This document shows positions 1-39,404 of a stretch of DNA of 64,000 nt, in pieces. The translations under genes were made by a program, and so were the position numbers. The notes beneath the pieces are model-generated. The model saw only the letters and a program-made list of their open reading frames with translations, searched no databases and was not told where the DNA came from. Origin of the DNA: Minisyncoccota bacterium (GTDB lineage: Bacteria; Patescibacteriota; Minisyncoccia; Phycocordibacterales; JAACPR01); the NCBI GenBank assembly GCA_041674225.1, contig JBAYWG010000003.1, forward strand, positions 2,582-66,581, read 5' to 3'. Each line of letters opens with the position of its first letter. Within the stretch, counting starts at the first letter, position 1.

Positions 1-614
1 ATTGCCACCTGTTGCCTGTGCGTTCTCTACTTCATCTTGGATGTGTTTGTCATATCTCGTACTTGCAAGACAAGTGCTAAATTTTGACTTATCTAATCCG
101 ACATATTCTGCAATCTTTGGAAGTTCAGCTAAATCCAGTCCGTTGTTTGCAGGAGTCACTTCATACAAACGGTCTGCATACTCCCAGAACTTGTCATTTC
201 CTCCTAACTCATTGGCGCACTCCATAGCAACAGCTTCTTTTCGTGCTTTTGAGTGAAGCTGGTCAATTGGAAAATGTCGATACACCCAAGCTACTTTCCC
301 TTCTTTACCATACGTATCCATTACCTCATTCATGGTTGTTTGGAATCTCTTACAGAACGGACATTCAGTATCAGAATATTCAACAACTTTCACAGGAGCA
401 TTTATGTCACCTCGGATATGGTCTTTAGATGAAACTGGCGTCATCTTTTCAAGATCACCTGTTTGCTTTTGTGCTACCTGTTGTTGTGGCTGACCAGCAG
501 TAGGTGTTTTGCCTCCACTATAGAGAACCGCACCAGCGATGAGTGCTCCAGCAATCACTACAGCAATCGGCATCGCAAGATTATTTTTTTGAGTTGTTTG
601 TGTTTTTTCTTCCA
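1..614 (-). CDS. DsbA-like thioredoxin-fold thiol:disulfide oxidoreductase; ATG at 612-614, C-terminus runs off the window edge
   Basis: Hand translation of the minus strand from the ATG at 612-614 gives MEEKTQTTQKNNLAMPIAVVIAG... with an N-terminal TM, a CPFC (CxxC) motif and DsbA-like spacing. The gene is absent from the ORF track because it runs off the window edge. The plus-strand track ORFs 2..256, 243..428, 463..678 lie antisense to it. Confidence 0.6.
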
Positions 615-620
615 TAATAT

Positions 621-992
621 TTATCTTCCGAACCATTGGTTAAGCCATCCCTTCATCGTATTTATCTCTGAAGTTTGAGCATTGATAATATCGTCTGCCA
701 TTTTCTGAAGTTCTGGACGCTTTGTGCCAGCCTTAAGCTCCTTTGCCATAGCAACCGCACCCTCATGATGTGTGATCATTCCCTCAAGAAAAGCTATCTC
801 AAGAGCTTCACCTGTTTTTCCATTAAGGCTTCCTGTCATCCCAGACATCGTGTGTTCCATTGTTGTAGGAGCTTTGGTGTCATGATAACTGCTCTTATCA
901 TGCGAGCCGTGTTTGACAGAGTTAATCATGTATCCAATACCTGTACCAAGTATCAGTGCGACGAGACCAACTATTATAATATTTTTGTTCAT
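621..992 (-). CDS. DUF305-family protein (metal/copper-associated periplasmic protein)
   Basis: N-terminal TM. MITHHEGAVAMA-type HH..A motif typical of DUF305. Sits with the DsbA-like gene and a CxxC-like membrane protein. Confidence 0.65.
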   Translation of the reverse strand: MNKNIIIVGLVALILGTGIGYMINSVKHGSHDKSSYHDTKAPTTMEHTMSGMTGSLNGKTGEALEIAFLEGMITHHEGAVAMAKELKAGTKRPELQKMADDIINAQTSEINTMKGWLNQWFGR

Positions 993-1065
993 GCGTGATG
1001 TTAAAAATTAGACTTAATAATGACAAACCAAACACGCAACAGGCGTGTTTTCAACAAAATAAAAC

Positions 1066-1482
1066 TTAAAAAAGTTTGGGATTTAGAATACCTCTTGAAA
1101 AAGCATCTTTAAGCGGGTCAAATATGCGAAAACGGTCTTTAAGTAAAAAGTAGGTGTGTGCATTTTTTATTTCAGGAAATGAGAAGGTCTTCCATGGAGT
1201 CAATTTTTGCAAAGCAACAAAAAGGAATAGTGCGAAAAGAATTGCGATGGCATCCTTTGATGGCAGCGTGGTGAACATTGCCTGCCATTCTTGAATATGC
1301 TCAGTGATATTCATATTGCAAATAGACATTGAATGACCAGAAAATGGACAGTTCACGGCTTGTCCATTTGCACCCATTCCGAACTGAGAAAATCCAAAAA
1401 GGATCACGTAAAGAGTAAACGTGATGACACTGAAAATTATTATTTTAGGAATCTTTATGGACATAAGAGGGTAGGATTTCAT
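1066..1482 (-). CDS. Hypothetical membrane protein with Cys-rich periplasmic segment (CPFSGHSMSIC)
   Basis: Track ORF of 138 aa with two predicted TM segments. No recognisable family. Confidence 0.35.
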   Translation of the reverse strand: MKSYPLMSIKIPKIIIFSVITFTLYVILFGFSQFGMGANGQAVNCPFSGHSMSICNMNITEHIQEWQAMFTTLPSKDAIAILFALFLFVALQKLTPWKTFSFPEIKNAHTYFLLKDRFRIFDPLKDAFSRGILNPKLF

Positions 1483-1647
1483 TTTAACAAAAAATCACCT
1501 CTTTGGTAAGATGATTTTTTGTTCTGGCTACTGCACTCAGCAGGTATGCAATTTTTGAATAGTATCTGTGATTTACCCAAAGTTCGAGACCATGACTGGT
1601 CTTCAAAACTTTATGACCTCGACGGCGATTTTAGCCGTCTCGGTCGG

Positions 1648-1683
1648 GCTCACATGATTGCTGCCGCAAAAGGATTCGAACCG
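1648..1683 (-). other. tRNA 3'-end fragment (~36 nt) nearly identical to the 3' end (T-arm plus acceptor) of tRNA-Gln at 3843..3913; does not fold as a complete tRNA
   Basis: ctcacatgattgctgccgcaaaaggattcgaacc (1648-1683) aligns with ctcacatgactgctgcccaacaaggactcgaacc (3832-3865). No matching 5' acceptor strand is found upstream. Confidence 0.55.
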
Positions 1684-1709
1684 TCTCGGTCGCCCTTGAC
1701 TGGTCAATT

Positions 1710-3572
1710 CTAATTATTGGCGAAAGACTGAGCTTTACTTCTAGATAATTCACCAAAAATACCTGTTCCTTTTGTCAGTCCGAGCGGAGCAAGTATGTCG
1801 ACGGAATATTCTTCTTGGAACTTAACGAGTGCGTTATATGTTCTAGTTGAAAATAATGACGTTTCACTTCCGACAGACCCGGCACCCGTCGAAGCAAGTA
1901 GGAAGCCTGCGCAATTAAGAAACTTCTGCAGAGATCGAACATCTTCTCCTTGTGAGCCAGCTCGAAGAGTCCTGTTAATAGTTCCAAGAGAACATGTACC
2001 ACCTACTAATTGAACAGCAGGCGAGATAATTACCTGATCCTGAAAAGCATTTGGATACTGATTAATCAGTTCTTGAGCACCTTTCGTATTACCCATCTCT
2101 AAGAGATTCTTTACCCGACTTGAAACGGAAGATCCGCTACGAGATCGATTCTGCGACCGTTCCTCATCTTCGACTCCTGGCTCAGGAACTGATGCTAGTG
2201 TGGTGAAACTCCATGTTGAGGAACTTGTGATTCCTGCAAAATGATTCCCCGCAATATCACTAACCGCATCATTATCAATAATTACATAATACTCTGTCTC
2301 TGATTCAAAATCTTGTGGAAACGCAATAGTGAGTACTTGTGTTCCACTTCCGCCGCCACCTGATTGTGCAAAGAAGACAGAATCATCGAGAGCTCGATAT
2401 ACCGTAACACTATCAGGTTCTGATTCCCAAACTACAGCCTCATTGAAGGTAATAGCTAGCCCACTATCTAGAGCTACGGCAGTAGCGTTATCGAGCGGTG
2501 AGAGTGTCGCTATCGTTGGATTAGCATTGGTTGTGGTAAAGGTCTTTTCAACTCCATAACTCGTACCTTCTGCATTTGTGGCATATGCCCTTACATAGTA
2601 CAAAACACCCTCATCCAGACCGGTGAGTGATCCGACAAATTCTCCCTCGCCCGTCCCATCATTCGCGCAAGTATCAGAGATGGTTGGAGCAGTTGAGGTA
2701 CTGACACATACACCTCTTTCAGTGACAGAAACTCCCTGATCATCAACCACCTCCCCACCCACTGCAGCAATAGTGCTTCCAACTCCAGCAATAGTACCTG
2801 TTACTACAACAGGAGCACCCTCCTCAACAAATGCAGCGCCTCCTTCGAGTTGAATAAGGAAGTCATCTATCTTGCCCATGCGAGAACCTGCGGCGGCAAA
2901 GAAACCATGGATAATACTTGAACCTCCGAGATCGGCGTTAACGACACCGTTCAATACTTTCTCTGTCTTCATGGTACCCAAGACGCCCGCAGCATCCGAA
3001 TTCCATATTTGGAAATTAAGGTCATAAGTATTACTGCCCTGCGCTGTAACTTTAAAAATCATTTTGTACCAATTGCCGACAACAAGGTCGGGTGGCCAAG
3101 AAACATCCGTATATGTTCTATTATTCACAAAAGATCCACCTCCACCATGAAATGACATACCGATACCCTTTAGCGGCTGCCCTGTGAAGTCCCCCGTATT
3201 AGTATCTGCATTTGAAAATCCCAATCCGCCATATCCGCCATTTGCTTGAATTTTAAAGTAAGCACTGAATGTATAGACATCTCCATCGCCAGCAACACTG
3301 TATCCTTGCTTGGTAGTCCAGTTATCTGTGGTACCCAGAGGTACATTTATCGCGCCCGTATCTCCGATACCGCCTGATGAGACATTTGTGAACTGAACTG
3401 AACCATCTGAATTAAAGTTGTCTGTTAGATCCGTAGTCGTATTGAAATCAACAAGATTGGTAACAAGGGCGTGTGCGCTTTGAACATTAAAGAAACTTAT
3501 TGCAACAAAAATTATCAGCAAACCTGACTTTAATGAAAAAATGTTTCTATTCTTAAATAAGTGTGGACTCAT
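1710..3572 (-). CDS. Large secreted/cell-surface protein with C-terminal peptidoglycan-binding (PG_binding_1-like) domain; likely start at internal Met (signal peptide MSPHLF...SAHA)
   Basis: The track ORF is 1710..3662. The signal peptide begins at aa 31. Internal repeats are Gly/Thr-rich and beta-rich. The C-terminus LQKFLNCAGF...TYNALVKFQEEY resembles a PG-binding domain. Confidence 0.5.
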   Translation of the reverse strand: MSPHLFKNRNIFSLKSGLLIIFVAISFFNVQSAHALVTNLVDFNTTTDLTDNFNSDGSVQFTNVSSGGIGDTGAINVPLGTTDNWTTKQGYSVAGDGDVYTFSAYFKIQANGGYGGLGFSNADTNTGDFTGQPLKGIGMSFHGGGGSFVNNRTYTDVSWPPDLVVGNWYKMIFKVTAQGSNTYDLNFQIWNSDAAGVLGTMKTEKVLNGVVNADLGGSSIIHGFFAAAGSRMGKIDDFLIQLEGGAAFVEEGAPVVVTGTIAGVGSTIAAVGGEVVDDQGVSVTERGVCVSTSTAPTISDTCANDGTGEGEFVGSLTGLDEGVLYYVRAYATNAEGTSYGVEKTFTTTNANPTIATLSPLDNATAVALDSGLAITFNEAVVWESEPDSVTVYRALDDSVFFAQSGGGGSGTQVLTIAFPQDFESETEYYVIIDNDAVSDIAGNHFAGITSSSTWSFTTLASVPEPGVEDEERSQNRSRSGSSVSSRVKNLLEMGNTKGAQELINQYPNAFQDQVIISPAVQLVGGTCSLGTINRTLRAGSQGEDVRSLQKFLNCAGFLLASTGAGSVGSETSLFSTRTYNALVKFQEEYSVDILAPLGLTKGTGIFGELSRSKAQSFANN

Positions 3573-3842
3573 AATAAAATTTATAATAACAATTATATCA
3601 AAAAGTAAACTTATCATAAAGCAAGTCCCACAGACACTGACTGTATCATTAGAAATTTCCAAAATACAAACAAGATTTGCAAAAAAAATCTGACGGGATC
3701 AGGACTCGAACTACAGAAACGGCTTAAAATAAGACTTCTGCAAATTCAGCGAAAATCACAAAAGTTCGAGCCCATGACTCGTTCTAAATATCCGTTGCAA
3801 AATATAGCGATTTCATGAGACACGATCTGTCTCACATGACTG

Positions 3843-3913
3843 CTGCCCAACAAGGACTCGAACCTTGATACCTGGTACCAAAAACCAGTGTCCTACCATT
3901 AGACGATCGGGCA
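3843..3913 (-). tRNA. tRNA-Gln (anticodon TTG)
   Basis: Folded by hand. Acceptor TGCCCGA/TTGGGCA. D-stem GTCT/GGAC. Anticodon stem CTGGT/ACCAG with loop TTTTGGT. T-arm CAAGG-TTCGAGT-CCTTG. Discriminator G. CCA not encoded. Confidence 0.85.
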
Positions 3914-3961
3914 AATTCGCGACAAGAGACATTTTGCACTAAAAATTTGGTTCTAGCAAGT

Positions 3962-3998
3962 ATAGAAAAAAGGCGGCACCGCAGGTGCCGCCTTTAAA
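3962..3998 (-). terminator. Rho-independent terminator downstream of 4012..4491
   Basis: GC hairpin aaaggcggcacc-gcag-gtgccgccttt. On the minus strand it is followed by TTTTTTCTATAC. Confidence 0.7.
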
Positions 3999-4011
3999 AC
4001 GCAAGTCGAAA

Positions 4012-4491
4012 TCAATCCAAAGGCTCCGAAAGAGTCCAAACCGTCTTAGGCTTTTCATCTGCTTGATCCACAAGTTTCCACACCGTCTCCGGTTTTTTGT
4101 CTTCCACTTCCCATGGCAATTTATCAACATTATGACGACCAGTCAGATCGCAGATGACGATTTTCCTTCTAGCGCCCCAAGCCTCAGCCAATTCCATAAC
4201 ATAGTCCTTGCGGACTCTTTTATTGAGAACAGAATGCACGATAAATGCATTCACACACAACAACAAGAGGCACACAGGATAAATCCAATGAAGCTCCACA
4301 AAAAAGAGACTAGCAACGGATAATGAAAAAATCCAAAGCAAGCCAACATAAAAAACTCCAAAGATTTTTTTCAACTTAAGGAGTTTATAACACTCCTCCG
4401 CATCAAGATCTGATTCGTATGAATCAACGCCACGGCTCTCAAGAAACTTTCGAGCGAAACGCTTACCCAAAATCGACATTATATATTTCAT
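4012..4491 (-). CDS. Hypothetical membrane protein
   Basis: 159 aa with two central TM helices. Ends in a TGA stop, which shows TGA is a stop in this genome. Confidence 0.4.
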   Translation of the reverse strand: MKYIMSILGKRFARKFLESRGVDSYESDLDAEECYKLLKLKKIFGVFYVGLLWIFSLSVASLFFVELHWIYPVCLLLLCVNAFIVHSVLNKRVRKDYVMELAEAWGARRKIVICDLTGRHNVDKLPWEVEDKKPETVWKLVDQADEKPKTVWTLSEPLD

Positions 4492-4542
4492 AGAACAATT
4501 TCCTTTCTTTGTTTAGGATTTGTTTAGAACAATATAACAGAT

Positions 4543-6180
4543 TTAAACCAACGGCAACTTAAACTCAAATGTAGAACCTTTATCTCGCCCAGCAGATGAT
4601 GCTTTCACGTGACCGTTGTGATCTTTAACAATTTTGTATGTAATGAAAAGACCATAACCAGTGCTGTTTACATTTCTTTTTTGAGCCTCCTCTCCTCGCC
4701 CACCTTGTTGGAACAAAACCTTTTTATCTTCATCACTCAATCCTAAACCAGTGTCAGAAACTTTAAACACAACATTTTTATCCTCCACACTCATAGAAAC
4801 ATTCACGGCTCCCGCGCCAGTATATTGAATTGCGTTCTCAATCAAATTTCTCACAGCTTGAGCTAAGTGTGTTAAGTCACCGTTCACCATCATTTCTTTT
4901 GATGAATCAATTTGAGAATTCAATGTCAGACCTTTTGCTTCAGCTGTAGGTTTTAGTTGAGAAATAATATCACTCACTAATGCACGGAAATCAAAATTCA
5001 CATGTTGATAATTTACAGTTCCGTCTTGCAAGTTGGACGCATCAAGAAGTGACTTCACCATTTGCACAGCTTGCGTGTTTGTATCAAAACCAACATTTAC
5101 CAACTTTCTCGCCTCATCTGTCAGCGCTCCATACTCATCATTTTTCAACGCATCAAAAATTAGTCGTGATCGTGTCAAAAATCCCTTCACTTGGTGGTTG
5201 ATGAACCGCATTAGTGATTGTTGTTGGTCGTTGGCTTTTTGAAGGTTTTGTCTTGCTAGAACTTCAGATTTAACACTTCTTATCAAGAAAAATCCTAAAA
5301 TAGAAGTTAGTGCCAAGTTTACAATAACAATAGTTCTTACCAAGCTTAGTGTTTGTAAAAAGAATAATGAGAATGTAAGCAACCATAGACTAAAAACCAA
5401 TATCTGAGTTGGTAATATTTTTGTATTGAACGCACCATGTTTTCCTACCAAATAAGACAAGATACCAATAAAAACAGGCATTCCAAATAGTCCATACTGA
5501 GCGACAGACCAATCTAAAGCAAAACTTCCAAAAATATTTCCAAAAGAAAACATTAATAAAAACATTAGGGCACCAAAACACATCAAAATATTTCTTGAAA
5601 TCTTTGTTTTATCTTCAATGTTTTTAATAGATTTAACACCAGCGGCAACGATTAGACCAACCATTAGTAATTCAACTAGATACGCATACAACCATAGAGG
5701 ACCTTCTATGGCTTCTCTATCGCAATTAGTAAAATCAAAACCAGTTAAATTTAAGGCTGTCGGAGCTAAAAATATTATTGGTAAAAATAAAATAAAAATA
5801 AAAACCGAATTAGATACTGGTAGTTCTTTTCTAAACAAATAATAAAACACAAATAGATAAGTAAAAATATAAATTAATACATCTAAATAGATCAAAGATG
5901 ACCAAGCAAACATAATATAATCTACCCTTTCTGTAGCCCACAACATTAAATCAACTAAAGACCACAGAACAAAAGTTATAGATAATAAAAACAAAAGTCT
6001 ATTCAAAGCACCTTTTGGATTACTCAAAAAAACAAAGAAAGCAAACAGTATAGATAAAATTGCAGGAAATAAATGCGAGTAGTAAATCAGAGGAGAGAAA
6101 ACATTGTCGGAGAAGAGAAGGAATTTCGCTGAATCCCATTCACATATTTCTAGACCAATTTTTTGAATGTTTTCTATCAT
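4543..6180 (-). CDS. Sensor histidine kinase (multi-TM N-terminus, HisKA plus HATPase_c)
   Basis: About 7 N-terminal TM segments. H-box region MRFINHQVKGFL. G-boxes DTGLGLS and GYGLFITYKIV. Confidence 0.8.
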   Translation of the reverse strand: MIENIQKIGLEICEWDSAKFLLFSDNVFSPLIYYSHLFPAILSILFAFFVFLSNPKGALNRLLFLLSITFVLWSLVDLMLWATERVDYIMFAWSSLIYLDVLIYIFTYLFVFYYLFRKELPVSNSVFIFILFLPIIFLAPTALNLTGFDFTNCDREAIEGPLWLYAYLVELLMVGLIVAAGVKSIKNIEDKTKISRNILMCFGALMFLLMFSFGNIFGSFALDWSVAQYGLFGMPVFIGILSYLVGKHGAFNTKILPTQILVFSLWLLTFSLFFLQTLSLVRTIVIVNLALTSILGFFLIRSVKSEVLARQNLQKANDQQQSLMRFINHQVKGFLTRSRLIFDALKNDEYGALTDEARKLVNVGFDTNTQAVQMVKSLLDASNLQDGTVNYQHVNFDFRALVSDIISQLKPTAEAKGLTLNSQIDSSKEMMVNGDLTHLAQAVRNLIENAIQYTGAGAVNVSMSVEDKNVVFKVSDTGLGLSDEDKKVLFQQGGRGEEAQKRNVNSTGYGLFITYKIVKDHNGHVKASSAGRDKGSTFEFKLPLV

Positions 6181-6450: not shown

Positions 6451-7077
6451 TTAAAGGTTTCGTAGCAATGTCACACCTTCAGAGATGTAATAAGCCACCC
6501 CTGACCAGTAAGCGATATGCCAACAAACCATTGGAAGTAGTTTGGTGACAGTTTTTTTTACTAAGTCGTTTTCATGTTCACATTTCTGCGTATACATAAA
6601 AACAGACTGGGGATCAAAGACGTGGAGTGTTCCTACCGAATAAAGCAGCCACTTATTGTGCAGTAGCCAAGATTGAGTTTTTGTCTGAATCTTGGCGTAC
6701 ATTCTTTTAATAATGTGTCCTGTAATACGGTATTGATTTTGCATCAAAGAAATTAAAAGAAATTTCATCTGGTGCAACGGGTACAAAATGATGTTTTTGC
6801 CAAACTTTGGTGACCGAGTGCTTTCCGCAATCTCTTGCATGGCATGCATACCAAAAAGATCTACGCCGCGCTCATACATTGCACGATAGTGAATCGTCAC
6901 AATAATAATTGAGAAAAGGAAATAACAAGGTACAGTTACAATAAAGCAAATAAACCATCCGTACTTGAACGCAAGCCAGAGAAGCATTGGGTAAAAAATC
7001 AAACGATCCAAATACCCAAAAAACTGATCCCATGCAAGCGCTTTAAACGTTGTAAGCACAATCTGTTTCGTACTCAT
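6451..7077 (-). CDS. Hypothetical integral membrane protein
   Basis: 208 aa with several TM segments. No family recognised. Confidence 0.35.
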   Translation of the reverse strand: MSTKQIVLTTFKALAWDQFFGYLDRLIFYPMLLWLAFKYGWFICFIVTVPCYFLFSIIIVTIHYRAMYERGVDLFGMHAMQEIAESTRSPKFGKNIILYPLHQMKFLLISLMQNQYRITGHIIKRMYAKIQTKTQSWLLHNKWLLYSVGTLHVFDPQSVFMYTQKCEHENDLVKKTVTKLLPMVCWHIAYWSGVAYYISEGVTLLRNL

Positions 7078-10965: not shown

Positions 10966-11970
10966 CTACTTTGTTCTCAAGAAATCCCCAATGATATTTT
11001 CGATCTCCCCCACGTCTTTAGCCTCCATCAATTTCATTCGGAGTTCTTTGGCACCATCAAAACCTTCAACGTACGCTTTGTAGTGTTTTTTCATCACTGC
11101 AAAATTTTTATGAAATAAAATCTCCGAGAATAATTTGGTATGCTCAATCAAAACCTTCAATCTTTCTTCTAAACTAATATCTCGATCACGAATAATTTCT
11201 TTATTAAAAAACCAAGGATTACCAAAAATTCCCCGACCAATCATCACTCCATCAATTCCAGTTTCCTCAATAATACTTTTCGATTTTTCTAAAGTATCAA
11301 TATCGCCGTTACCAAGCAGAATTGTTTCTGGAGAAATTTTATCTCGAAGTTCAATTGCCTTTTTTGCCAACTCCCAATGTGCAGGAACTTTTGACATTTC
11401 TTTTCTAGTTCGCCAATGAATTGTTAAAGCATCTGGTTTTGTTGAAAGAATTTCTGAAACTCAATCTTCCATTTCTGAGATGTTGTTGTATCCAATACGA
11501 GTTTTGACTGATATGGGTAGTAGCGGCGCGCCTTGGCGCGCCGCTTTTATAATCACCTTCGCCAACTCAGGATTTTTAATTAAGGATGCTCCACTTTTTT
11601 GTTTCTCCACAGATCTATCAGGACATCCCATATTTATATCCAAACCATCAAAACCCAAATCCTGAACAAGCTTCGCTGCCTTCTCCATCATCTCCGGCTT
11701 TCCAGAAAAAAGCTGAGCCACTATCGGACGCTCGGCTTCTGTATATTCCAAATCCTTCAATAATTTTTGTTTTGAAGAAAGTCCTGAATCATCCACATTA
11801 TCGTCAGGTGCCATCACCAACCCATCTGCCGAAACGAATTCTGTCCAAGTTACATCCGGCTTTCCATACTTTGCAAACAAACGACGAAAAGAAGCGTCAG
11901 TCACATCCGCCATTGGGGCCAAAACTATTATTGGTTTATTTAATTGCTTCCAAAAATTCCGAGAAGTCAT
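10966..11970 (-). pseudogene. dus: tRNA-dihydrouridine synthase (Dus) interrupted by a single in-frame TGA (track ORFs 11461..11970 and 10966..11397 are one continuous frame)
   Basis: The N-part carries LAPMADVTD and the catalytic DINMGCP. After the TGA at 11461-11463 the same frame continues VSEILSTKPDALTIHWRTRKEM-MSKVPAHWE... into the conserved Dus C-terminal half. There is no frameshift. Confidence 0.65.
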
Positions 11971-30852: not shown

Positions 30853-32211
30853 ATGTCAGATACAACATCAAAAAGTTTTATAGGAAAAATATTATTCGTT
30901 TTGGGAGTTATTATAATTCTAATTATTCTTGCTTCCCTAATTATCAAATTTGTACCAAGAATCTTCAGTGGTTTAGCCAATGTTGGTTCTTCAATCCAAA
31001 ACGTAGTCAGCAAAGATGAGATTTCAGTTACAGCAAGTGACGTTAGTCTAACTAACGGAGAAAGATTTGTTGTGAGCTGGGATTCTAATATAGATGAAGC
31101 TGGTGCTTATAGCATTAGTTACTCATGTGTTGATAATGTGGAGGTTGATATCGAAACAGCTAGCGGCGTACGTCGTCTAATTTGTGATAATCCATTTACA
31201 CTAGGAGCAAATCCTGGATCTGTAACTCTTGTATCTACTCTAAATAAAGCAAATGCTTTTGTTGATGTGCCAATTAATGTAAGTTTCTCTCAAGGAAACA
31301 CAGCTCCCCTAGCTTCAAACAGCGTAGTGGTGACAATCCAAAATGGAGACATCAATGCTGGAACTTTTGGTGAAAACGGAACTACAATTTCAGCAGAACC
31401 TGTTGAACAAATCGAAACACCAAGACCAACAACTACAACGTCTCAACCGAGATCAGTAGTTTACACTCCAGTTGTAACAGGACCAGCTGATTTATCTATC
31501 TCAAGTATTGCTCCAATTGGAAACAATAGAATTGCTTTTACTGTTTCAAACAACGGAGGAAGAAGTACTGGTAACTGGACTTTCAATTACAACACTCCAA
31601 CTAGCCCAAAGGAAACACTGTCTTCTCCACTACAACCATCTCTTGGACCAAATCAATCTATTTTGTACACACTAACATTTAATGCAAAAGCTAGCGGAAA
31701 CCAAAACGTAGTAGTACAACTTGATCCAACAAATATAATTTCAGAAGCTTCTGAAACAAATAACATCGGAACAATCACTCTTACAGGTGCTGCTTATGGT
31801 GGAGGTTCTTCAAATAATTCAGACAACTCATACAACTCTAGAGATGATGCAGACTTTGTAATAAGTAATCTAGAAGTAGGACGACTTTCTGGAAACAACT
31901 TTATCGAAGATGATGAAGCTGAAGACGGTGATGACGTTGCTATACGATTTATCGTTAAAAACAAAGGTGGAGATGAAACCGAAGACTGGAGATTTGAAGT
32001 TAGAAATCTACCTTACGACAATGGAAACACTTTCCGATCAAAAGAATATAATTCTCTAGAACCTGGTGAATCAATTGAAATCACTGTTGAATTTGAAAAT
32101 ATTGACGAAGGTGATTATGACATTCGAGTTGAAGTAGACTCTGATGACGACACTGACGAAGAAAGCGAATCAAACAACGATGACTCTGTGGATTTAGAAG
32201 TTGAAAGATAA
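30853..32211 (+). CDS. Secreted/anchored surface protein with CARDB-like repeats and strongly acidic C-terminus
   Basis: N-terminal TM/signal anchor. DPTNIISEASETNN-type CARDB motifs. D/E-rich tail. Confidence 0.45.
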   Translation: MSDTTSKSFIGKILFVLGVIIILIILASLIIKFVPRIFSGLANVGSSIQNVVSKDEISVTASDVSLTNGERFVVSWDSNIDEAGAYSISYSCVDNVEVDIETASGVRRLICDNPFTLGANPGSVTLVSTLNKANAFVDVPINVSFSQGNTAPLASNSVVVTIQNGDINAGTFGENGTTISAEPVEQIETPRPTTTTSQPRSVVYTPVVTGPADLSISSIAPIGNNRIAFTVSNNGGRSTGNWTFNYNTPTSPKETLSSPLQPSLGPNQSILYTLTFNAKASGNQNVVVQLDPTNIISEASETNNIGTITLTGAAYGGGSSNNSDNSYNSRDDADFVISNLEVGRLSGNNFIEDDEAEDGDDVAIRFIVKNKGGDETEDWRFEVRNLPYDNGNTFRSKEYNSLEPGESIEITVEFENIDEGDYDIRVEVDSDDDTDEESESNNDDSVDLEVER

Positions 32212-34345: not shown

Positions 34346-34429
34346 AAATGTCCGTTAATTTTACCAAACTACACCTTATTTACAAGGTATTTTTGTGGTG
34401 TAAAAACATTAATTTTAGTAAAATTTAGT

Positions 34430-34458
34430 TTGACAAAAGTTAAATATAATACATAATA
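34430..34458 (+). promoter_or_regulatory. Sigma70-like promoter (TTGACA-17-ATAATA) for 34505..34957
   Basis: Consensus -35 and near-consensus -10 hexamers. The RBS aaaggaaca precedes the ATG. Confidence 0.5.
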
Positions 34459-34504
34459 TAAATGTAAGATCTTAAACAATATACCAACGAAAGGAACACT
34501 TCAA

Positions 34505-34957
34505 ATGAGCAAGGATGGGATAGTGCCCGAAATTAAAGAAAAGATGATTCATAAAGTTGTCAGAGTAGATCGCACCCGAACTCCTCAAGAAACCTTGAAA
34601 GCCACTGGTCGAAGCTTATATGCTGACAACGAATCAATTATCAACACCATGCCCCGAGGCGAAAGCGATGAGGTGGAGGTGATCTTCTTTCAGGTCGGTC
34701 GTGTACTGACACATGAAGACCTAGCTCAGGAGTTCAACCTACGAGGTCTCAAACCCGCTGATTCTTACTCTCAAGCCAAAGCAAATGAAGATGATCCCAT
34801 ATTCGCCGAAGAACATCCCAATGGAACTCACTGGGAACACAATGGGAAATGGTGTTTCTCAACATTCGACGTTTGGGATGGTGAACAGGTCGTGGATGTT
34901 TCTTGCAGTGGCAGAGGGTGGCTTGAAAGCTGGTGGTTTGCCGGTATTCGCAAGTAA
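34505..34957 (+). CDS. Hypothetical protein (ORFan A) in GC-rich island
   Basis: 150 aa and soluble. W-rich C-terminus (GRGWLESWWFAGIRK). Local GC is roughly 45-47% against ~33% background. It has its own terminator at ~34995-35040. Confidence 0.45.
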   Translation: MSKDGIVPEIKEKMIHKVVRVDRTRTPQETLKATGRSLYADNESIINTMPRGESDEVEVIFFQVGRVLTHEDLAQEFNLRGLKPADSYSQAKANEDDPIFAEEHPNGTHWEHNGKWCFSTFDVWDGEQVVDVSCSGRGWLESWWFAGIRK

Positions 34958-35093
34958 GAAATACTTTGAGCTCAGTCCATAAAAATTTCAACCTCCTGTA
35001 TCAGACTACTTCGGTAGTACTGGTACAGGATTTTTCTTTTTAAATTTATATACTACCCCTCTAAAATAAAAATCTAGCCCGAAAGCTAGAGTA

Positions 35094-35606
35094 TCAGCCC
35101 GCTGGCTGAAAGAAAGCAAAAGCAGTTTCTGATGTCAGAACATACTGCTTTTGATCGATGTAAGCTTTCAGATTCAACTGCTTGGCTTGTTTTTTCATGC
35201 CAAGATGAATCTTCTGACCCTCCGAATCCAAAACCGGTTCGTGCATCATAATAATCCGTCGAAACTTCATATTTTCAATGCCAAGACTTTGCATCTCCAA
35301 ACTCAAGAGAAGAGCTACCTCAGGAGAAGTCTTGTGACTCGAAAATCCCAAAGCACTCGTCTCCTCAGAAATCTGCTTATACGTCGTCTTCACCGGATCG
35401 AATTCACTTCTGGAAATCAAGACAATGTTTCCTTTAGGAACTCCCACACCGGAGAAATCCAATTTTTGAATGATGTCTTTTGCATCACTAAAGACATTGA
35501 TACCAACAGGATTGAAACCGCGATTCCAATTATCCAAAGTACACAGCCAGTCTTCGCCAACCATGCCGGCCGCACCGCAAGTATAAATAGTATTAAGATC
35601 TTTCAT
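35094..35606 (-). CDS. Hypothetical protein (ORFan B) in GC-rich island
   Basis: 170 aa and soluble. It has its own terminator tctagc-tttcgg-gctaga plus T-run downstream on the minus strand. Confidence 0.45.
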   Translation of the reverse strand: MKDLNTIYTCGAAGMVGEDWLCTLDNWNRGFNPVGINVFSDAKDIIQKLDFSGVGVPKGNIVLISRSEFDPVKTTYKQISEETSALGFSSHKTSPEVALLLSLEMQSLGIENMKFRRIIMMHEPVLDSEGQKIHLGMKKQAKQLNLKAYIDQKQYVLTSETAFAFFQPAG

Positions 35607-35645
35607 TTAAACCTAATACAACCAAAATTGCGGTTTTCTGTATAC

Positions 35646-35674
35646 TTGACTATACTGCTTAAATATGTTAAAAT
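35646..35674 (+). promoter_or_regulatory. Sigma70-like promoter TTGACT-17-TAAAAT for 35778..36188
   Basis: The hexamers and 17-nt spacer are seen directly in the sequence. Confidence 0.5.
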
Positions 35675-35777
35675 ACAAGAGTAAAATAAGTTCTTTGAAA
35701 CGTAGTTGAGTTTGGAAGAAAGGTCGCAACATTCCGTTGTTATCTTTCAAATCAAACTTAAACTACAAAATACCACT

Positions 35778-36188
35778 ATGAAAACCACACTATCCAGCAT
35801 TTCATTCTATCCTGTCAAAGGCCTCACACTCAAAAACGACCTCGTTACGAAGGTTTTAGGTTCAGCAGACTGGAGATTTCAGAATGAGGGCTCATTTTGG
35901 AAGGGGGAATTCTACGTCCCTGGATATCCTCTCTTGATACCCAACAATGATATCGAGATCGAAGTCTTGGACAACGAAGTGTTTGTTATCCGTGATTCCA
36001 CGGGGAAAGTCACACTGAGAGGAGTCCTCTCCCATGTCGACAAACCAGAAATGGGCACAGCTTACATGTTCCAGAGTGCACAAGCTGTCGTATTTTGGCC
36101 CAACGAACAGAACCCCATTGGGGAAGGAGTCCAGAGTGATCACTCCCTCACAGGTTGCGTCACAGTGGTCTGGAAATTCAAAGAATAG
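35778..36188 (+). CDS. Hypothetical protein (ORFan C) in GC-rich island; start at internal Met MKTTLSS
   Basis: The track ORF is 35706..36188. Two terminator hairpins lie downstream, including 36370-36400 aaaaaggagacatttatgtctccttttt. Confidence 0.4.
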   Translation: MKTTLSSISFYPVKGLTLKNDLVTKVLGSADWRFQNEGSFWKGEFYVPGYPLLIPNNDIEIEVLDNEVFVIRDSTGKVTLRGVLSHVDKPEMGTAYMFQSAQAVVFWPNEQNPIGEGVQSDHSLTGCVTVVWKFKE

Positions 36189-36431
36189 TGGTAAACCCAC
36201 TCGGTGAAGTAACCGCAGAGTTCAAACCTCTTAAAACTTCAAACCTCCCGTACCAGCAATACTATGTAATGCTGTGCGGGATTTTTCTTTTTAGCTGCAT
36301 AAATTAATTAATATTACTTGTGAGTACATTGCGGAGCCGTCCCAAACGGCGAGCGAAACGAAAAACAAAAAGGAGACATTTATGTCTCCTTTTTGTTTTA
36401 TCGTGGGTACGAATAAGTAATATTAATTTAT

Positions 36432-37022
36432 TTACGCAACAAAAATACACAACCTCCTCCAAAACTCCTCAAACTTCCCCCTCTCCACAAACAAATTTTT
36501 CTTTATCCCCTTCTTTGTATCCGGATCGTTATACATAAACCCAGCAATATCCCCATCGTCATCTTTTTCAAAACCTGTAATCACAATCAAATGCGAAGAT
36601 TTATTTTGATCAAATCCCGCAGACACAGACACAACAACAGGTCTTCCTGCTTTCAACATTTGTGCAATTTTTTTAATCCCAGCTTTCGCCATCTTTGCAT
36701 CATAAATACTCGGCGTTCCAGAATTTTTTCCAAGACTCACCAACTGACTTTTAAATTCTTCTCTGTATGCAAAAATTCCACGGTTTCTAAAAATACGCAC
36801 AAGCGCTTCATGATCCCAACCATTTTCACCATACCCTCCGATTTTTACACCTTCATCAATTAACGCATCGATACTTTCATCATTGTCAGGATAAAAATAT
36901 TTGATAATCATCTTTGCACAAGTCACTCCGCAAGCACGAGAATGCCACTTCGGTTCTAACACATTTTGATATTGAGAATAATAAGGCACATCCAAAAAAT
37001 ACATGAGCTTATTATACGACAA
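36432..37022 (-). CDS. Papain-like cysteine peptidase, C39-like (Peptidase_C39_2/BtrH-like) family
   Basis: VPYYSQ...ACGVTCAKMI (Cys). Downstream His in SSHLIVITGF. About 190 aa, a typical domain size. Confidence 0.6.
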   Translation of the reverse strand: MSYNKLMYFLDVPYYSQYQNVLEPKWHSRACGVTCAKMIIKYFYPDNDESIDALIDEGVKIGGYGENGWDHEALVRIFRNRGIFAYREEFKSQLVSLGKNSGTPSIYDAKMAKAGIKKIAQMLKAGRPVVVSVSAGFDQNKSSHLIVITGFEKDDDGDIAGFMYNDPDTKKGIKKNLFVERGKFEEFWRRLCIFVA

Positions 37023-39404
37023 CTATCTCACCATCCAATCTTTTTGACTGTTTAAAACCTCTGAAACTTTTTCCATAATTTTATTTATCTCTTCATCAGT
37101 TAAAGTTTTTTCGTGCGACTGAAAAACAATTCTAAACGCGTATGAAACTTTTTCATCTTTCACGAATTTATCAAACAGGCGACTTTGCACCACAAGCTCT
37201 CCAGCATTTTCTTTAATCAAATTGAAAACAAAATCTTCTGAAATTTCTTTTGGCACCCATACAGCAACATCGCGCACAATAAAAGGATACACAGAAAATG
37301 CTTTATATTGTTTTGGATAAAAATCTTTTTGAAGTTTATAAAAACTTGTTGGTGAAACTTCTGGTAGTTTTTTAATTACTTTATCTAAATTAATTTCTGC
37401 TACTTTATCTGCAATTTGAAAATCTCCATCAGACAAACTGAATTTTGTTTTTAATTCTTCGATTGTTAGTTTTAAAGATTTTGCGTTTGAACTAGCAATT
37501 CCAAGAGTCCAAGCTTCGTCTGCAACGCAAAATACTTTTCCAATTTCGAAAATCTTAATTTCACTCAAACCAAGTAGATCAACATTTCTTGTATTGAAAT
37601 CCAAACTTTCTTTCAGTCCATCAGAAATATTCTTTCTCATGAAGCCTTTGTCTTTTGTTAATGGATTTGAAATCTCCACTTCACCCGCACTTCGGAGTGT
37701 ATATGTCATTGTATCTGTATATCCAAGATTCAAAAGAAAATCTGCAAACTCTAGCAAATAATAATGAGTTTTATCTACAACTACAGGACTTTCTCTTTTC
37801 ACTTCTTTACTTTGAATATTTTTATATCCATACACTCTCGCAATTTCTTCAATCAAATCCACAGTTCTACGAATATCAATTCGCTCGTCAGGAACTGCCA
37901 CTACGAATCTTTTTTCATTTTCATCAAAAATTCTTCCATAATAAACAACGTCTTTAAATTCAGGTGAATTATCTACATCTTCGATCACAACACCTTTATC
38001 ATCTGAACTAGTACAATGAATTATTTTTTCATCTCCTAAATAAACACCTAAATGATCAATTGGTATTTCTACTTTTGTACCGTCCATAAATTGTTTAGAT
38101 ACAGAATGTTCCGGTTCAACCATTGATTGAATCTCTGGATTATCTTTGAATTTATTTTGATTAGATTCACTTACCACGTGTTCATTAGAAAAAATAATAT
38201 CCCCTGGTTCCAAATCTTCTTTACTAATTTTTTCTGACCAAACTAATTGATCAATAGAAATTCTTGGAATTGATTGTCCTGACTGCAAAGCTGCATAGCA
38301 AGTCAAAGAAGAACAATCAAAAAACTCTGGGCAATCATAAAGAACTCTAGATCCAAACTTATAAGGCTTTCCTTCTAAACTTTTTAGAGTTTCAATAAAA
38401 TTATCTTTTGCTTTTACAATTTTATATTCAAAATTCAACTTACCGAAAATATCTTCGATTTCTTTTTCAGAAATATTTGTTCCTAAATATTTATTTACTT
38501 CTTCAACTGAAACACCAGTTTTATATTGCCCAGCTTTTCTAGGATAAATATCTACAATACTTCCAACTTTTGTATTGTCATCCGAAGCATACTTCAAAAG
38601 CATTTCTGTAAGTCGATTCATCGCAATTTCTGACCAAAGAGGTGTGATATCTCTCTCAAATCTTTTTGAAGATTCAGTATCAATTCCCAGAGCTCGACGA
38701 GTCTTACGCACAGTCACCGCATCAAAGTTTGCTGACTCAAGCAAAAGATTCACAGTTCCTTCTGCCACTTCAGCTTTCTTTCCACCTTTAATTCCTGCAA
38801 TTGCCAAAACATCACTTTCATCTGCAATCACCATTTCATTTCCTGCAAATTTAACTTCTTTATTATCAAGAGTTGTAAAATTAGTTTCTGCATCGGCACC
38901 TCGAACTAAAATTTTCTTTCCACTCAATTTATCAGAATCAAAAGCATGCATTGGTTGTCCCAAATCAAACATCACAATATTTGTACAATCCACAATATTA
39001 TTAATTGATCTTTGTCCGATTGCTTCCAACTTTTTTTTCAACACATCTGGAGACGGCCCAAACTTAACTCCACGAATTTCTCGTGCCACGTATCTCTTAC
39101 AATTTTTATCACTCACTTCCACAGAAAATTCTGTTTCAAAATCTACTCGACTCAATTCGTTTGGATATTTTTTCAAAGGAATACCAGCCAAAACATTTAC
39201 CTCTCTAGCGATTCCATAATGTGCAAAAGAATCATGTGCTCTGTTTGGTTGCACATCTATTTCATAAAGAAAATCATCACCATCTTGTTTTATAGATTCC
39301 ACTTCGTACGCACCAGCAGTCAAAATATCAGCCAGCTCTTTAGCTTCTGGAAGTTTTCCATCTAAATGTTCTTGAAGCCAATTGTGTGAAACTCGCATGC
39401 TCAT
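37023..39404 (-). CDS. pheT: Phenylalanyl-tRNA synthetase beta subunit lacking the N-terminal OB/tRNA-binding domain and carrying an inserted NlpC/P60 peptidase-like domain (aa ~335-495) between B5 and the B6/B7 catalytic-like module
   Basis: B3/B4, B5, the B6-7 block (VAVPDERIDIRRTVDLIEEIARVYGY) and C-terminal FDX-ACB are recognisable. The insert carries YDCPEFFDCSSL...GQSIPRIS.DQ...LEPGDIIF...HLGVYLGDEKIIHCTS, matching the NlpC/P60 Cys-His-His core. Confidence 0.85.
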   Translation of the reverse strand: MSMRVSHNWLQEHLDGKLPEAKELADILTAGAYEVESIKQDGDDFLYEIDVQPNRAHDSFAHYGIAREVNVLAGIPLKKYPNELSRVDFETEFSVEVSDKNCKRYVAREIRGVKFGPSPDVLKKKLEAIGQRSINNIVDCTNIVMFDLGQPMHAFDSDKLSGKKILVRGADAETNFTTLDNKEVKFAGNEMVIADESDVLAIAGIKGGKKAEVAEGTVNLLLESANFDAVTVRKTRRALGIDTESSKRFERDITPLWSEIAMNRLTEMLLKYASDDNTKVGSIVDIYPRKAGQYKTGVSVEEVNKYLGTNISEKEIEDIFGKLNFEYKIVKAKDNFIETLKSLEGKPYKFGSRVLYDCPEFFDCSSLTCYAALQSGQSIPRISIDQLVWSEKISKEDLEPGDIIFSNEHVVSESNQNKFKDNPEIQSMVEPEHSVSKQFMDGTKVEIPIDHLGVYLGDEKIIHCTSSDDKGVVIEDVDNSPEFKDVVYYGRIFDENEKRFVVAVPDERIDIRRTVDLIEEIARVYGYKNIQSKEVKRESPVVVDKTHYYLLEFADFLLNLGYTDTMTYTLRSAGEVEISNPLTKDKGFMRKNISDGLKESLDFNTRNVDLLGLSEIKIFEIGKVFCVADEAWTLGIASSNAKSLKLTIEELKTKFSLSDGDFQIADKVAEINLDKVIKKLPEVSPTSFYKLQKDFYPKQYKAFSVYPFIVRDVAVWVPKEISEDFVFNLIKENAGELVVQSRLFDKFVKDEKVSYAFRIVFQSHEKTLTDEEINKIMEKVSEVLNSQKDWMVR

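Follow-up and report, generated by a model that had tools for sequence, protein, structure and literature searches.

Three GC3-rich gene cassettes inserted beside gyrB in a Candidatus Paceibacterota genome, one of them a probable orphan target of a diversity-generating retroelement

We analyzed a 64-kb stretch of DNA (contig JBAYWG010000003.1, hereafter the window) from a metagenome-assembled genome (MAG) of Candidatus Paceibacterota, a lineage of the candidate phyla radiation (CPR/Patescibacteria) whose members are tiny bacteria of the symbiotic type. Next to gyrB, positions 34346-36431 carry three small genes that a first-pass annotation had described as a GC-rich, horizontally acquired island of ORFans. 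Our results suggest that this segment is probably a lineage-specific insertion of three independent, monocistronic and foreign cassettes with high GC content at third codon positions (GC3), that the first of them is an orphan target of a diversity-generating retroelement (DGR), and that the three do not constitute one system. The open reading frames (ORFs) lie where they had been placed initially, as borne out by the ORF listing and by public gene calls:

34505-34957, plus strand: gene 1, 150 aa, a short-form member of the DGR variable-protein family of Patescibacteria (assigned by homology, family alignment A1 and DGR-linked relatives)
35094-35606, minus strand: gene 2, 170 aa, from a sparse family with the motifs G-x-x-G...W, MHEP..DSDG and GFAF (homologue P0053, alignment A2)
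35778-36188, plus strand: gene 3, 136 aa, with the highest GC3 of the window (0.54) and P0055 as its sole homologue

Public calls for the same organism (ENA/JGI) give proteins of 150, 170 and 136 aa for genes 1, 2 and 3, and the NCBI call for gene 1 is a 102-aa protein that starts from a later ATG. The genes bear the locus tags WC087_03435/40/45 and the protein accessions MFA7193941-43 in the MAG, whose source metagenome is ERZ27247358, and an identical contig of 106 kb is found in ENA. Gene 2 is overlapped by a slightly longer antisense ORF of 177 aa (35151-35684, plus strand), whose frame is broken in the homologous locus L001; the frame that is conserved is that of the minus strand. By prediction, the three genes form three separate transcription units with alternating orientations.

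We compared this junction with 80 metagenomic relatives retrieved with gyrB (67-88% identity). These relatives keep the gene order glycosyltransferase, a 324-aa gene (p324), pheS, pheT, a C39-like peptidase gene (when present), gyrB and a gene encoding CARDB domains. The peptidase gene (36432-37022, minus strand; Pfam match to Peptidase_C39_2, E 3.5e-15), pheST and gyrB are all on the minus strand in the window, and the insert therefore sits between the peptidase gene and gyrB. The first-pass annotation had placed it between gyrB and the pheST operon, which is accurate on the gyrB side; on the other side, the peptidase gene, which follows pheST, intervenes. In relatives possessing the peptidase gene, 65-454 nt separate it from gyrB, apart from L088, the closest relative (gyrB 88% identical), with 795 nt; the spacer measures 2086 nt in the window and 93 nt in L079, whose gyrB is 80% identical. 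Homologues of genes 1, 2 and 3 were absent from the junction in every one of the 80 relatives. The segment is a lineage-specific insertion of ~1.9-2.1 kb in an otherwise short spacer. Host sequence resumes at ~34404 on the gyrB side and, on the peptidase side, within an inverted-repeat element beyond 36296:

34346-34404, minus strand: gyrB upstream region and promoter, left insertion boundary (86.8% identical to L088 2169-2326, a match that includes the gyrB start, and 86.5% to L079 7952-8025)
36289-36445, no strand assigned: inverted-repeat element, right boundary, with 39-nt AT-rich arms (82% complementary) around two hairpins; the right arm overlaps the stop codon of the peptidase gene

The left boundary carries the minus-strand promoter-like site TTGTAA-16-TAAAAT with a TG extension. 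The number of cassettes at this locus varies, with one in L088, at least two in L001 and three in the window. Of the idea of a horizontally acquired module, the foreign composition and the lineage-specific insertion stand, and the functional module does not.

The GC content of 34346-36431 is 40.7%, compared to 35.1% for the window, which places the segment at the 94th percentile among windows of equal length. The contrast described initially (mid-40s against ~33%) was therefore overstated, but the deviation in GC3 and codon usage is strong. The ORFs of genes 1, 2 and 3 have GC contents of 47.0, 42.3 and 47.0% and GC3 values of 0.45, 0.44 and 0.54, relative to 0.255±0.063 in the remaining 53 genes of the window, where the maximum is 0.425. 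They occupy the first three ranks for GC3 among the 56 window genes, with gene 3 at the top, and also present the three largest synonymous-codon distances, which confirms the compositional observation. A second and GC-richer zone is located at positions 1-5000 of the window (39-46% GC). The ORFs at 1066-1482, 4012-4491 and 6451-7077 are small, present raised GC3 (0.36-0.43) and match no Pfam family; the small raised-GC3 genes near this zone may be further acquired cassettes.

All the small cassette-type genes that we examined (loci L003-L077, L159, L160, L001, L088 and L002) are GC-richer than their host flanks. In the gene 1 family, this is the case for 65 of 65 loci, with a mean excess of 14 points (12 points for gene 1 of the window). 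Remote relatives of gene 2 have GC contents of 0.58-0.61 against 0.40-0.44 in their flanks (+17 points), the GC3 of gX, a 122-aa gene found at this junction in relatives, is 0.44-0.53 against 0.22 for gyrB, and the homologue of gene 3 stands at 0.50 against 0.47. Donors richer in GC may frequently have supplied such genes, or the genes may be under a constraint of their own, and either reading may apply. If the constraint is intrinsic, the three genes could even be native, their composition resulting from selection (expression-linked codon bias or amino-acid content) in an ordinary variable intergenic region, and the generality of the pattern across small-gene families (the gene 1 loci, the gene 2 relatives and gX) speaks in favor of this scenario. 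We consider it highly unlikely, since the genes are missing from the junction even in relatives with gyrB 80-88% identical, their occurrence is patchy, and one ORF of the locus has been replaced between conserved flanks.

None of the three proteins had been assigned to a recognized family at first, and scans against Pfam, NCBIfam, PHROGs and PADLOC agree with this. Gene 1, however, has 51 homologues (37-63% identity, E 2e-52 to 4e-20) among 5.8 billion clustered proteins, and a search of GTDB species representatives placed its family at 73 loci; almost all of the sources are Patescibacteria MAGs. Rather than an ORFan, gene 1 encodes a member of a family of DGR variable proteins that extends across Patescibacteria. 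The homology spans from approximately residue 9 to residue 150 (alignment A1), and 15 of the 15 invariant residues of the family are present. Most members are ~200 aa long; gene 1 does not possess their ~55-aa N-terminal helical segment, and its conserved domain is whole. Other short forms are known in the family (P0016, P0021 and P0050).

The link of this family to DGRs is seen directly in its members. In L003 and L004, the homologue of gene 1 is followed by bAvd and RVT_1 genes, and the last ~100 nt of the homologue are repeated ~290 nt downstream with 82-84% identity. Such pairs of a variable region (VR) and a template region (TR), 92-112 nt long, were identified in 32 of 75 family loci, and a reverse transcriptase (RT) in 33. 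When the VR/TR mismatches of the 32 loci were pooled, 526 out of 546 fell on TR adenines and 20 elsewhere. The concentration of VR/TR mismatches at adenines is the hallmark of DGR mutagenic retrohoming. Conservation among the 32 TRs is striking, and AAC codons abound in them. In these relatives, the neighboring RT, together with Avd, copies the ~100-nt TR into the last ~33 codons of the target gene and thereby randomizes the adenine-templated positions, and this randomization would diversify a ligand-binding surface. Judging from homology, gene 1 is a member of this known family of putative binding proteins diversified by retroelements, and we infer a ligand-binding role for it.

The AlphaFold2 (AF2) model of gene 1 built on the family alignment was confident, with a predicted local distance difference test (pLDDT) score of 91.2. 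Foldseek returned nothing significant for this model, and the best-shaped weak matches were C-type lectin domains (template modeling scores, TM, of 0.35-0.42), so that a C-type lectin fold is plausible for the predicted domain. Solved DGR variable proteins gave no significant match to gene 1 by sequence or by Foldseek, and a sequence search of the PDB with alignment A1 returned no match. Hypervariable proteins diversified by retroelements in CPR bacteria have been proposed to mediate the attachment of episymbionts to their hosts. By analogy, "host-interaction factor", one of the roles suggested for the whole island, may be a fair description of gene 1 only.

The loci of the family fit two published groups: a cellular DGR clade restricted to Patescibacteria (Roux et al. 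2021, PMC8144416) and, in Wu et al. 2018 (PMC5758913), the "CPR set", whose VR classes are unclassified. Gene 1 is homologous to the Patescibacteria/CPR targets (DGR clade 2, Roux et al. 2021) and is likewise GC-richer than its host, but it differs from them by having no nearby RT, Avd or TR, no N-terminal segment and a terminator that is locally derived. As in Mtd, TvpA and the archaeal AvpA (PMC8144416), the VR occupies the extreme C-terminus, on the final beta-strands of a domain that is compact and of alpha/beta type; unlike in these proteins, the C-type-lectin fold is for gene 1 a candidate suggested by weak matches.

The region of gene 1 that corresponds to the VR was delimited as follows:

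34856-34954, plus strand: VR equivalent, codons 118-150 of gene 1 (codon-for-codon alignment with 32 family TRs)

The formerly diversified codons are approximately 122-142 (34868-34930). They precede the invariant 3' end WWFAGIRK (34931-34954), where the TR homology ends and which we term initiation of mutagenic homing (IMH)-like; it retains the family-wide end of the VR, WWFAG-x-RK. Relative to the best TR, the VR of the window differs at 15 of 26 template-adenine sites (58%) and at 19-20 of 69-71 other sites (about 27.5-28%). The positions templated by AAC now encode D, D, V, D, S, S, R, L and S, and all the replaced codons can be reached as AAC-type (NNC) or AAT-type (NNT) codons, save one AGA. 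The adenine bias is weaker than that of cognate pairs, in which the mismatch at non-adenine sites is ~0%. The non-adenine divergence of 27.5% also exceeds that of all 32 DGR-linked VRs when these are compared to their best non-cognate TR (median 11.6%, maximum 25%). Many of the non-adenine differences are C-to-T changes at third positions.

We then searched for DGR components across ~74 kb, consisting of the 64-kb window and the contig pieces L078, L162, L164 and L165. Using tblastn with two family RTs, nothing was found at E<1 in the window or at E<0.1 in the contig pieces, and the best match to two family Avds had an E-value of only 0.14. The Pfam tables, which cover ~70 of the ~74 kb, contain no bAvd, RVT, integrase or transposase. 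A blastn search (word size 7) with the 3' end of gene 1 and the TR consensus recovered only the VR itself. With RT, Avd and TR all missing nearby, gene 1 qualifies as an orphan target, which has lost its retroelement or is located far from it and is probably frozen. Solitary copies of this kind are frequent in the family: 37 of the 75 loci present neither TR nor RT, and 22 of these are flanked by at least 3 kb on both sides.

Alternatively, gene 1 might be an active remote target, in which case a complete DGR located outside of the ~74 kb would diversify positions 34856-34954 in trans and the insert would carry a live hypervariable locus. The ORF is intact, its invariant residues and the 3' WWFAG(I/V)RK end are preserved, and the 22 well-flanked solitary copies are compatible with targeting at a distance. 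Moreover, remote targeting is documented in this very family. On CAVURJ010000001.1, from a Moranbacteria MAG, the VR of the solitary paralogue L018 (6001-6429) and the TR of the complete DGR L037 (6869-6965) differ at 15 of 26 adenine sites and at 0 of 69 other sites, with ~207 kb between the two loci. A DGR elsewhere in the incomplete MAG may therefore still serve gene 1. In Wu et al. 2018 (PMC5758913), all the reported remote targets came from outside of the CPR set; like the remote targets of Treponema denticola described there, gene 1 is away from any DGR core seen, but unlike the true remote target L018, it has no cognate TR among known TRs.

We nevertheless find it unlikely that gene 1 is still diversified in trans, and a frozen copy is clearly preferred. 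The VR diverges at non-adenine sites from every known TR beyond the range of DGR-linked VRs, many of the changes are third-position C-to-T, and the gene is 5'-shortened and resides in an insertion of recent date, which the closest relatives lack. In addition to the missing TR, RT and Avd in the searched DNA, a single variant of the protein is on record among 15 billion proteins. Gene 1 of the window would then most likely be expressed as a single frozen variant under its own promoter.

The two other cassettes are much rarer. Gene 2 has one close homologue, P0053 in L001, with 86% amino acid identity and a ratio of nonsynonymous to synonymous substitution rates (dN/dS) of 0.18. An exhaustive HMMER search of 1.84 billion representatives added ten weak relatives (E ~1e-4), which align over their full length with shared motifs (A2) and present no Pfam domain. 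The AF2 model (pLDDT 80) has no significant structural neighbor in PDB or BFVD, and the matches of the A2 profile to PDB entries 9ncf and 9c2d were rejected as the spurious sum of a short immunoglobulin (Ig)-repeat motif ("atGatGyqW") rather than homology. A DGR link was also considered for the relatives of gene 2 and rejected: P0057 and P0061 are solitary in housekeeping contexts with no RT. Weak C-type-lectin-shaped matches and aromatic C-terminal strands in both proteins were the basis for considering genes 1 and 2 as distant paralogues, which we rejected as well (hhalign of A1 against A2, probability 0.3%). For gene 3, the sole homologue is P0055 (67% identity, dN/dS 0.19), which is encoded in L002 beside a gene resembling glucose-6-phosphate dehydrogenase (G6PD) on a contig of 47% GC; PDB, phage and viral searches returned no match. 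Close homologues of genes 2 and 3 were each found in one other metagenome only. Both proteins appear cytoplasmic, with no signal peptide or membrane segment visible by eye. As judged by sequence conservation, genes 2 and 3 are real, rare and independently distributed proteins under purifying selection.

The sequences surrounding the three ORFs contain several candidate expression signals:

34430-34459, plus strand: gene 1 promoter-like site, TTGACA-16/18-CATAAT/TAATAT (consensus matches of 11/12 and 10/12)
34994-35042, plus strand: predicted gene 1 terminator, a 16-bp stem with TTCG loop (hairpin 34994-35030), then ATTTTTCTTTTT; -24.7 kcal/mol for the folded 100-nt stretch
35063-35090, minus strand: predicted gene 2 terminator, TCTAGCTTTCGGGCTAGA (hairpin 35090-35073), then TTTTTATTTT; inside the 86.9% DNA match to L001
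35646-35674, plus strand: promoter-like site of the gene 3 slot, TTGACT-17-TAAAAT with TG extension (found by scan; conserved in L001, alignment A3)
35705-35762, plus strand: predicted hairpin leader of 58 nt and 22 bp, TTGAGTTTGGAAGAAAGGTNGCAACANTCCGTTG, between the promoter and the start of gene 3; conserved before gX in L001 and L088
36246-36293, plus strand: predicted terminator of the gene 3 slot, hairpin (36246-36281), then ATTTTTCTTTTT; -28.0 kcal/mol for the folded stretch; conserved with L088

The region contains 17 promoter-like sites relative to 7.0±2.7 in its shuffles. A near-consensus sigma70 promoter had been attributed to each gene; this agrees with the sites of genes 1 and 3, but the only candidate for gene 2 is weak (TTGTAT-18-TATAGT), was picked by eye and is absent from the scan output. 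In agreement with the initial description, a predicted hairpin followed by a T-run is found after each of the three genes. The terminator of gene 1 is 83% identical to the gX terminator of L088 (1586-1636), and these two and the gene 3 terminator are paralogues; the 64-kb window contains two copies of the motif and no others. Compensatory stem changes can be read directly between them (CCTGTA/TACAGG for gene 3 against CCCGTA/TGCGGG for gene 1). We also considered the hairpin located after the VR as a DGR target-recognition element and rejected this role, since the terminators found at similar distances in the family are ordinary and non-homologous; the hairpin of the window is related to the local slot terminators and was thus taken as a terminator.

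The leader scores 101-115 bits with a covariance model in its three loci (the window, L001 and L088), which are three near-identical sequences whose structure is predicted without covariation. It is unique in the window, and a search of related loci (1.0 Mb) with the model gave no additional copy. At Rfam gathering thresholds, only four tRNAs were identified in the window, and permissive E-values added sub-threshold hairpin look-alikes on the terminator of the peptidase gene.

The comparison of these signals across relatives points to the exchange of ORFs at this site. The 795-nt spacer of L088 contains a single cassette with gX, which shows no detectable similarity to gene 3 and is flanked by elements conserved with the window: the leader (85% identity to 35688-35761), the terminator and the inverted-repeat element beside the peptidase gene. 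L001, a short contig, carries gene 2 and the same promoter and leader, followed by gX instead of gene 3. Its DNA match to the window (86.9% over 35063-35761) ends 17 nt before the ATG of gene 3, and the leaders of L088 and L001 are 85-87% identical to that of the window. The gene 3 homologue of L002 shares with the window the ORF alone and neither leader nor terminator. Because different ORFs occur between the same conserved signals, we conclude that the ORF was exchanged and that the site is a hotspot of cassette replacement. The third cassette would fill an expression slot, made of promoter, 58-nt hairpin leader and terminator, in which the closest relatives have another ORF, and ORFs would be replaced between these conserved flanks, presumably via recombination.

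Repeats are present at the boundaries of the insert. The inner hairpins of the right-boundary element are located at 36337-36351 (GCCGTCCCAAACGGC) and 36362-36399, the latter being a perfect 18-bp bidirectional terminator of the peptidase gene. The same architecture is found at L088 1439-1572 with perfect 26-nt arms of a different sequence, which hints at a conserved RNA or DNA structure. With Rfam, this element presented only sub-threshold look-alikes of small RNAs (STnc250, 31.9 bits against a threshold of 42). The whole insert is further bracketed by a 31-nt inverted repeat (34387-34417 and 36418-36448, 26 of 31 positions complementary), which none of 200 block shuffles reached. We rejected this repeat as a pair of transposon ends: it is partly derived from host sequence (3' codons of the peptidase gene and the gyrB upstream region), and this host sequence is also present in the island-free L079, so that the repeat was not taken as evidence for a mobile element. 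A weaker inverted repeat (12/16) surrounds the cassette of L088.

The proposal that the three genes act together as one acquired module (toxin/immunity, anti-phage or host-interaction) draws on their adjacency, their common foreign composition and their single insertion site, on the paralogy of the gene 1 and gene 3 terminators, and on a weak match of gene 2 to the Pfam family Tox-MPTase4. This match (E 0.058, 13.8 bits against a cut-off of 25) is at the level of noise, and Pfam, NCBIfam and PHROGs scans of genes 1-3 gave nothing above threshold; PADLOC returned no match for these genes and the peptidase gene, which argues against a toxin/immunity or anti-phage system. Phage and plasmid signals were equally lacking: to the extent that IMG/VR and INPHARED could be searched, neither genes 1, 2 and 3 nor the leader had relatives there, and we found no plasmid signal for genes 2 and 3. 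The genes are never adjacent elsewhere, and none of the 75 loci of the gene 1 family contains gene 2 or gene 3. The homologue of gene 2 is found beside gX (L001) and that of gene 3 beside the G6PD-like gene (L002). Together with the three transcription units of alternating orientation and the different contents of the locus in L088 (one gene) and L001 (two genes), these observations make a single functional module extremely doubtful.

The locus resembles integron-type and other cassette hotspots in that small, unrelated and foreign ORFs are found at one site with variable content and conserved flanking non-coding elements. Unlike integrons, each cassette is associated with its own promoter-like site and terminator, the orientations alternate, and the Pfam tables described above list no integrase or recombinase. 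No attC-like repeat recurs between the cassettes, where repeats are limited to the paralogous terminators. One could imagine a recombinase-independent mode of gene capture, in which the slots (promoter, leader and a terminator with a TTCG or similar loop) and the bracketing inverted repeats would serve as recombination substrates, and the slots would be repeatedly reloaded with small GC-rich ORFs from a CPR-wide pool, including stand-alone binding domains previously diversified by DGRs. We regard this idea as improbable. If true, such a gene-capture slot would offer ultra-small symbionts a new route to sampling surface or ligand-binding repertoires with no retroelement of their own.

We therefore return to three independent cassettes, with gene 1 as a frozen orphan target, as the probable explanation of the segment. 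Several points weigh against it. The DNA seen amounts to ~74 kb of one contig from an incomplete MAG, and remote targeting does occur in the family (L018/L037). The high non-adenine divergence of the VR could reflect an AT-rich cognate TR that has not been sampled rather than decay. Cassette replacement is known from three genomes only and no recombinase was found, and the promoters, terminators and leader are predictions from sequence.

Other features of the window were noted around the insert and further away. The product of pheT (37023-39404) contains an internal NlpC/P60-like segment (weak Pfam match), and the gene is followed by the cysteine peptidase gene of C39/C70-like type; the arrangement pheT-C39-gyrB recurs in about a dozen relatives. 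Downstream of gyrB, on the opposite strand and convergent with it, 30853-32211 encodes a 452-aa protein that begins with a membrane anchor, contains two CARDB domains and ends in an acidic C-terminus; the position of this gene is kept in most relatives. Finally, dihydrouridine synthase (Dus) is split in two adjacent ORFs, 10966-11397 (143 aa) and 11461-11970 (169 aa), both matching PF01207, which may represent a frameshifted gene, a split gene or an assembly error.

These results make an apparent ORFan island interpretable, since its first gene can be read as a solitary and N-terminally shortened copy from a CPR family of DGR hypervariable proteins. They leave the current understanding of DGRs unchanged. 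With no local RT or TR at 37 of the 75 family loci, surveys of DGRs that require an RT beside the VR would miss a large part of the genes that are or once were diversified. The replacement of cassettes at a housekeeping junction and the GC-richness of the cassettes constitute small leads on how CPR bacteria may acquire and exchange accessory genes.

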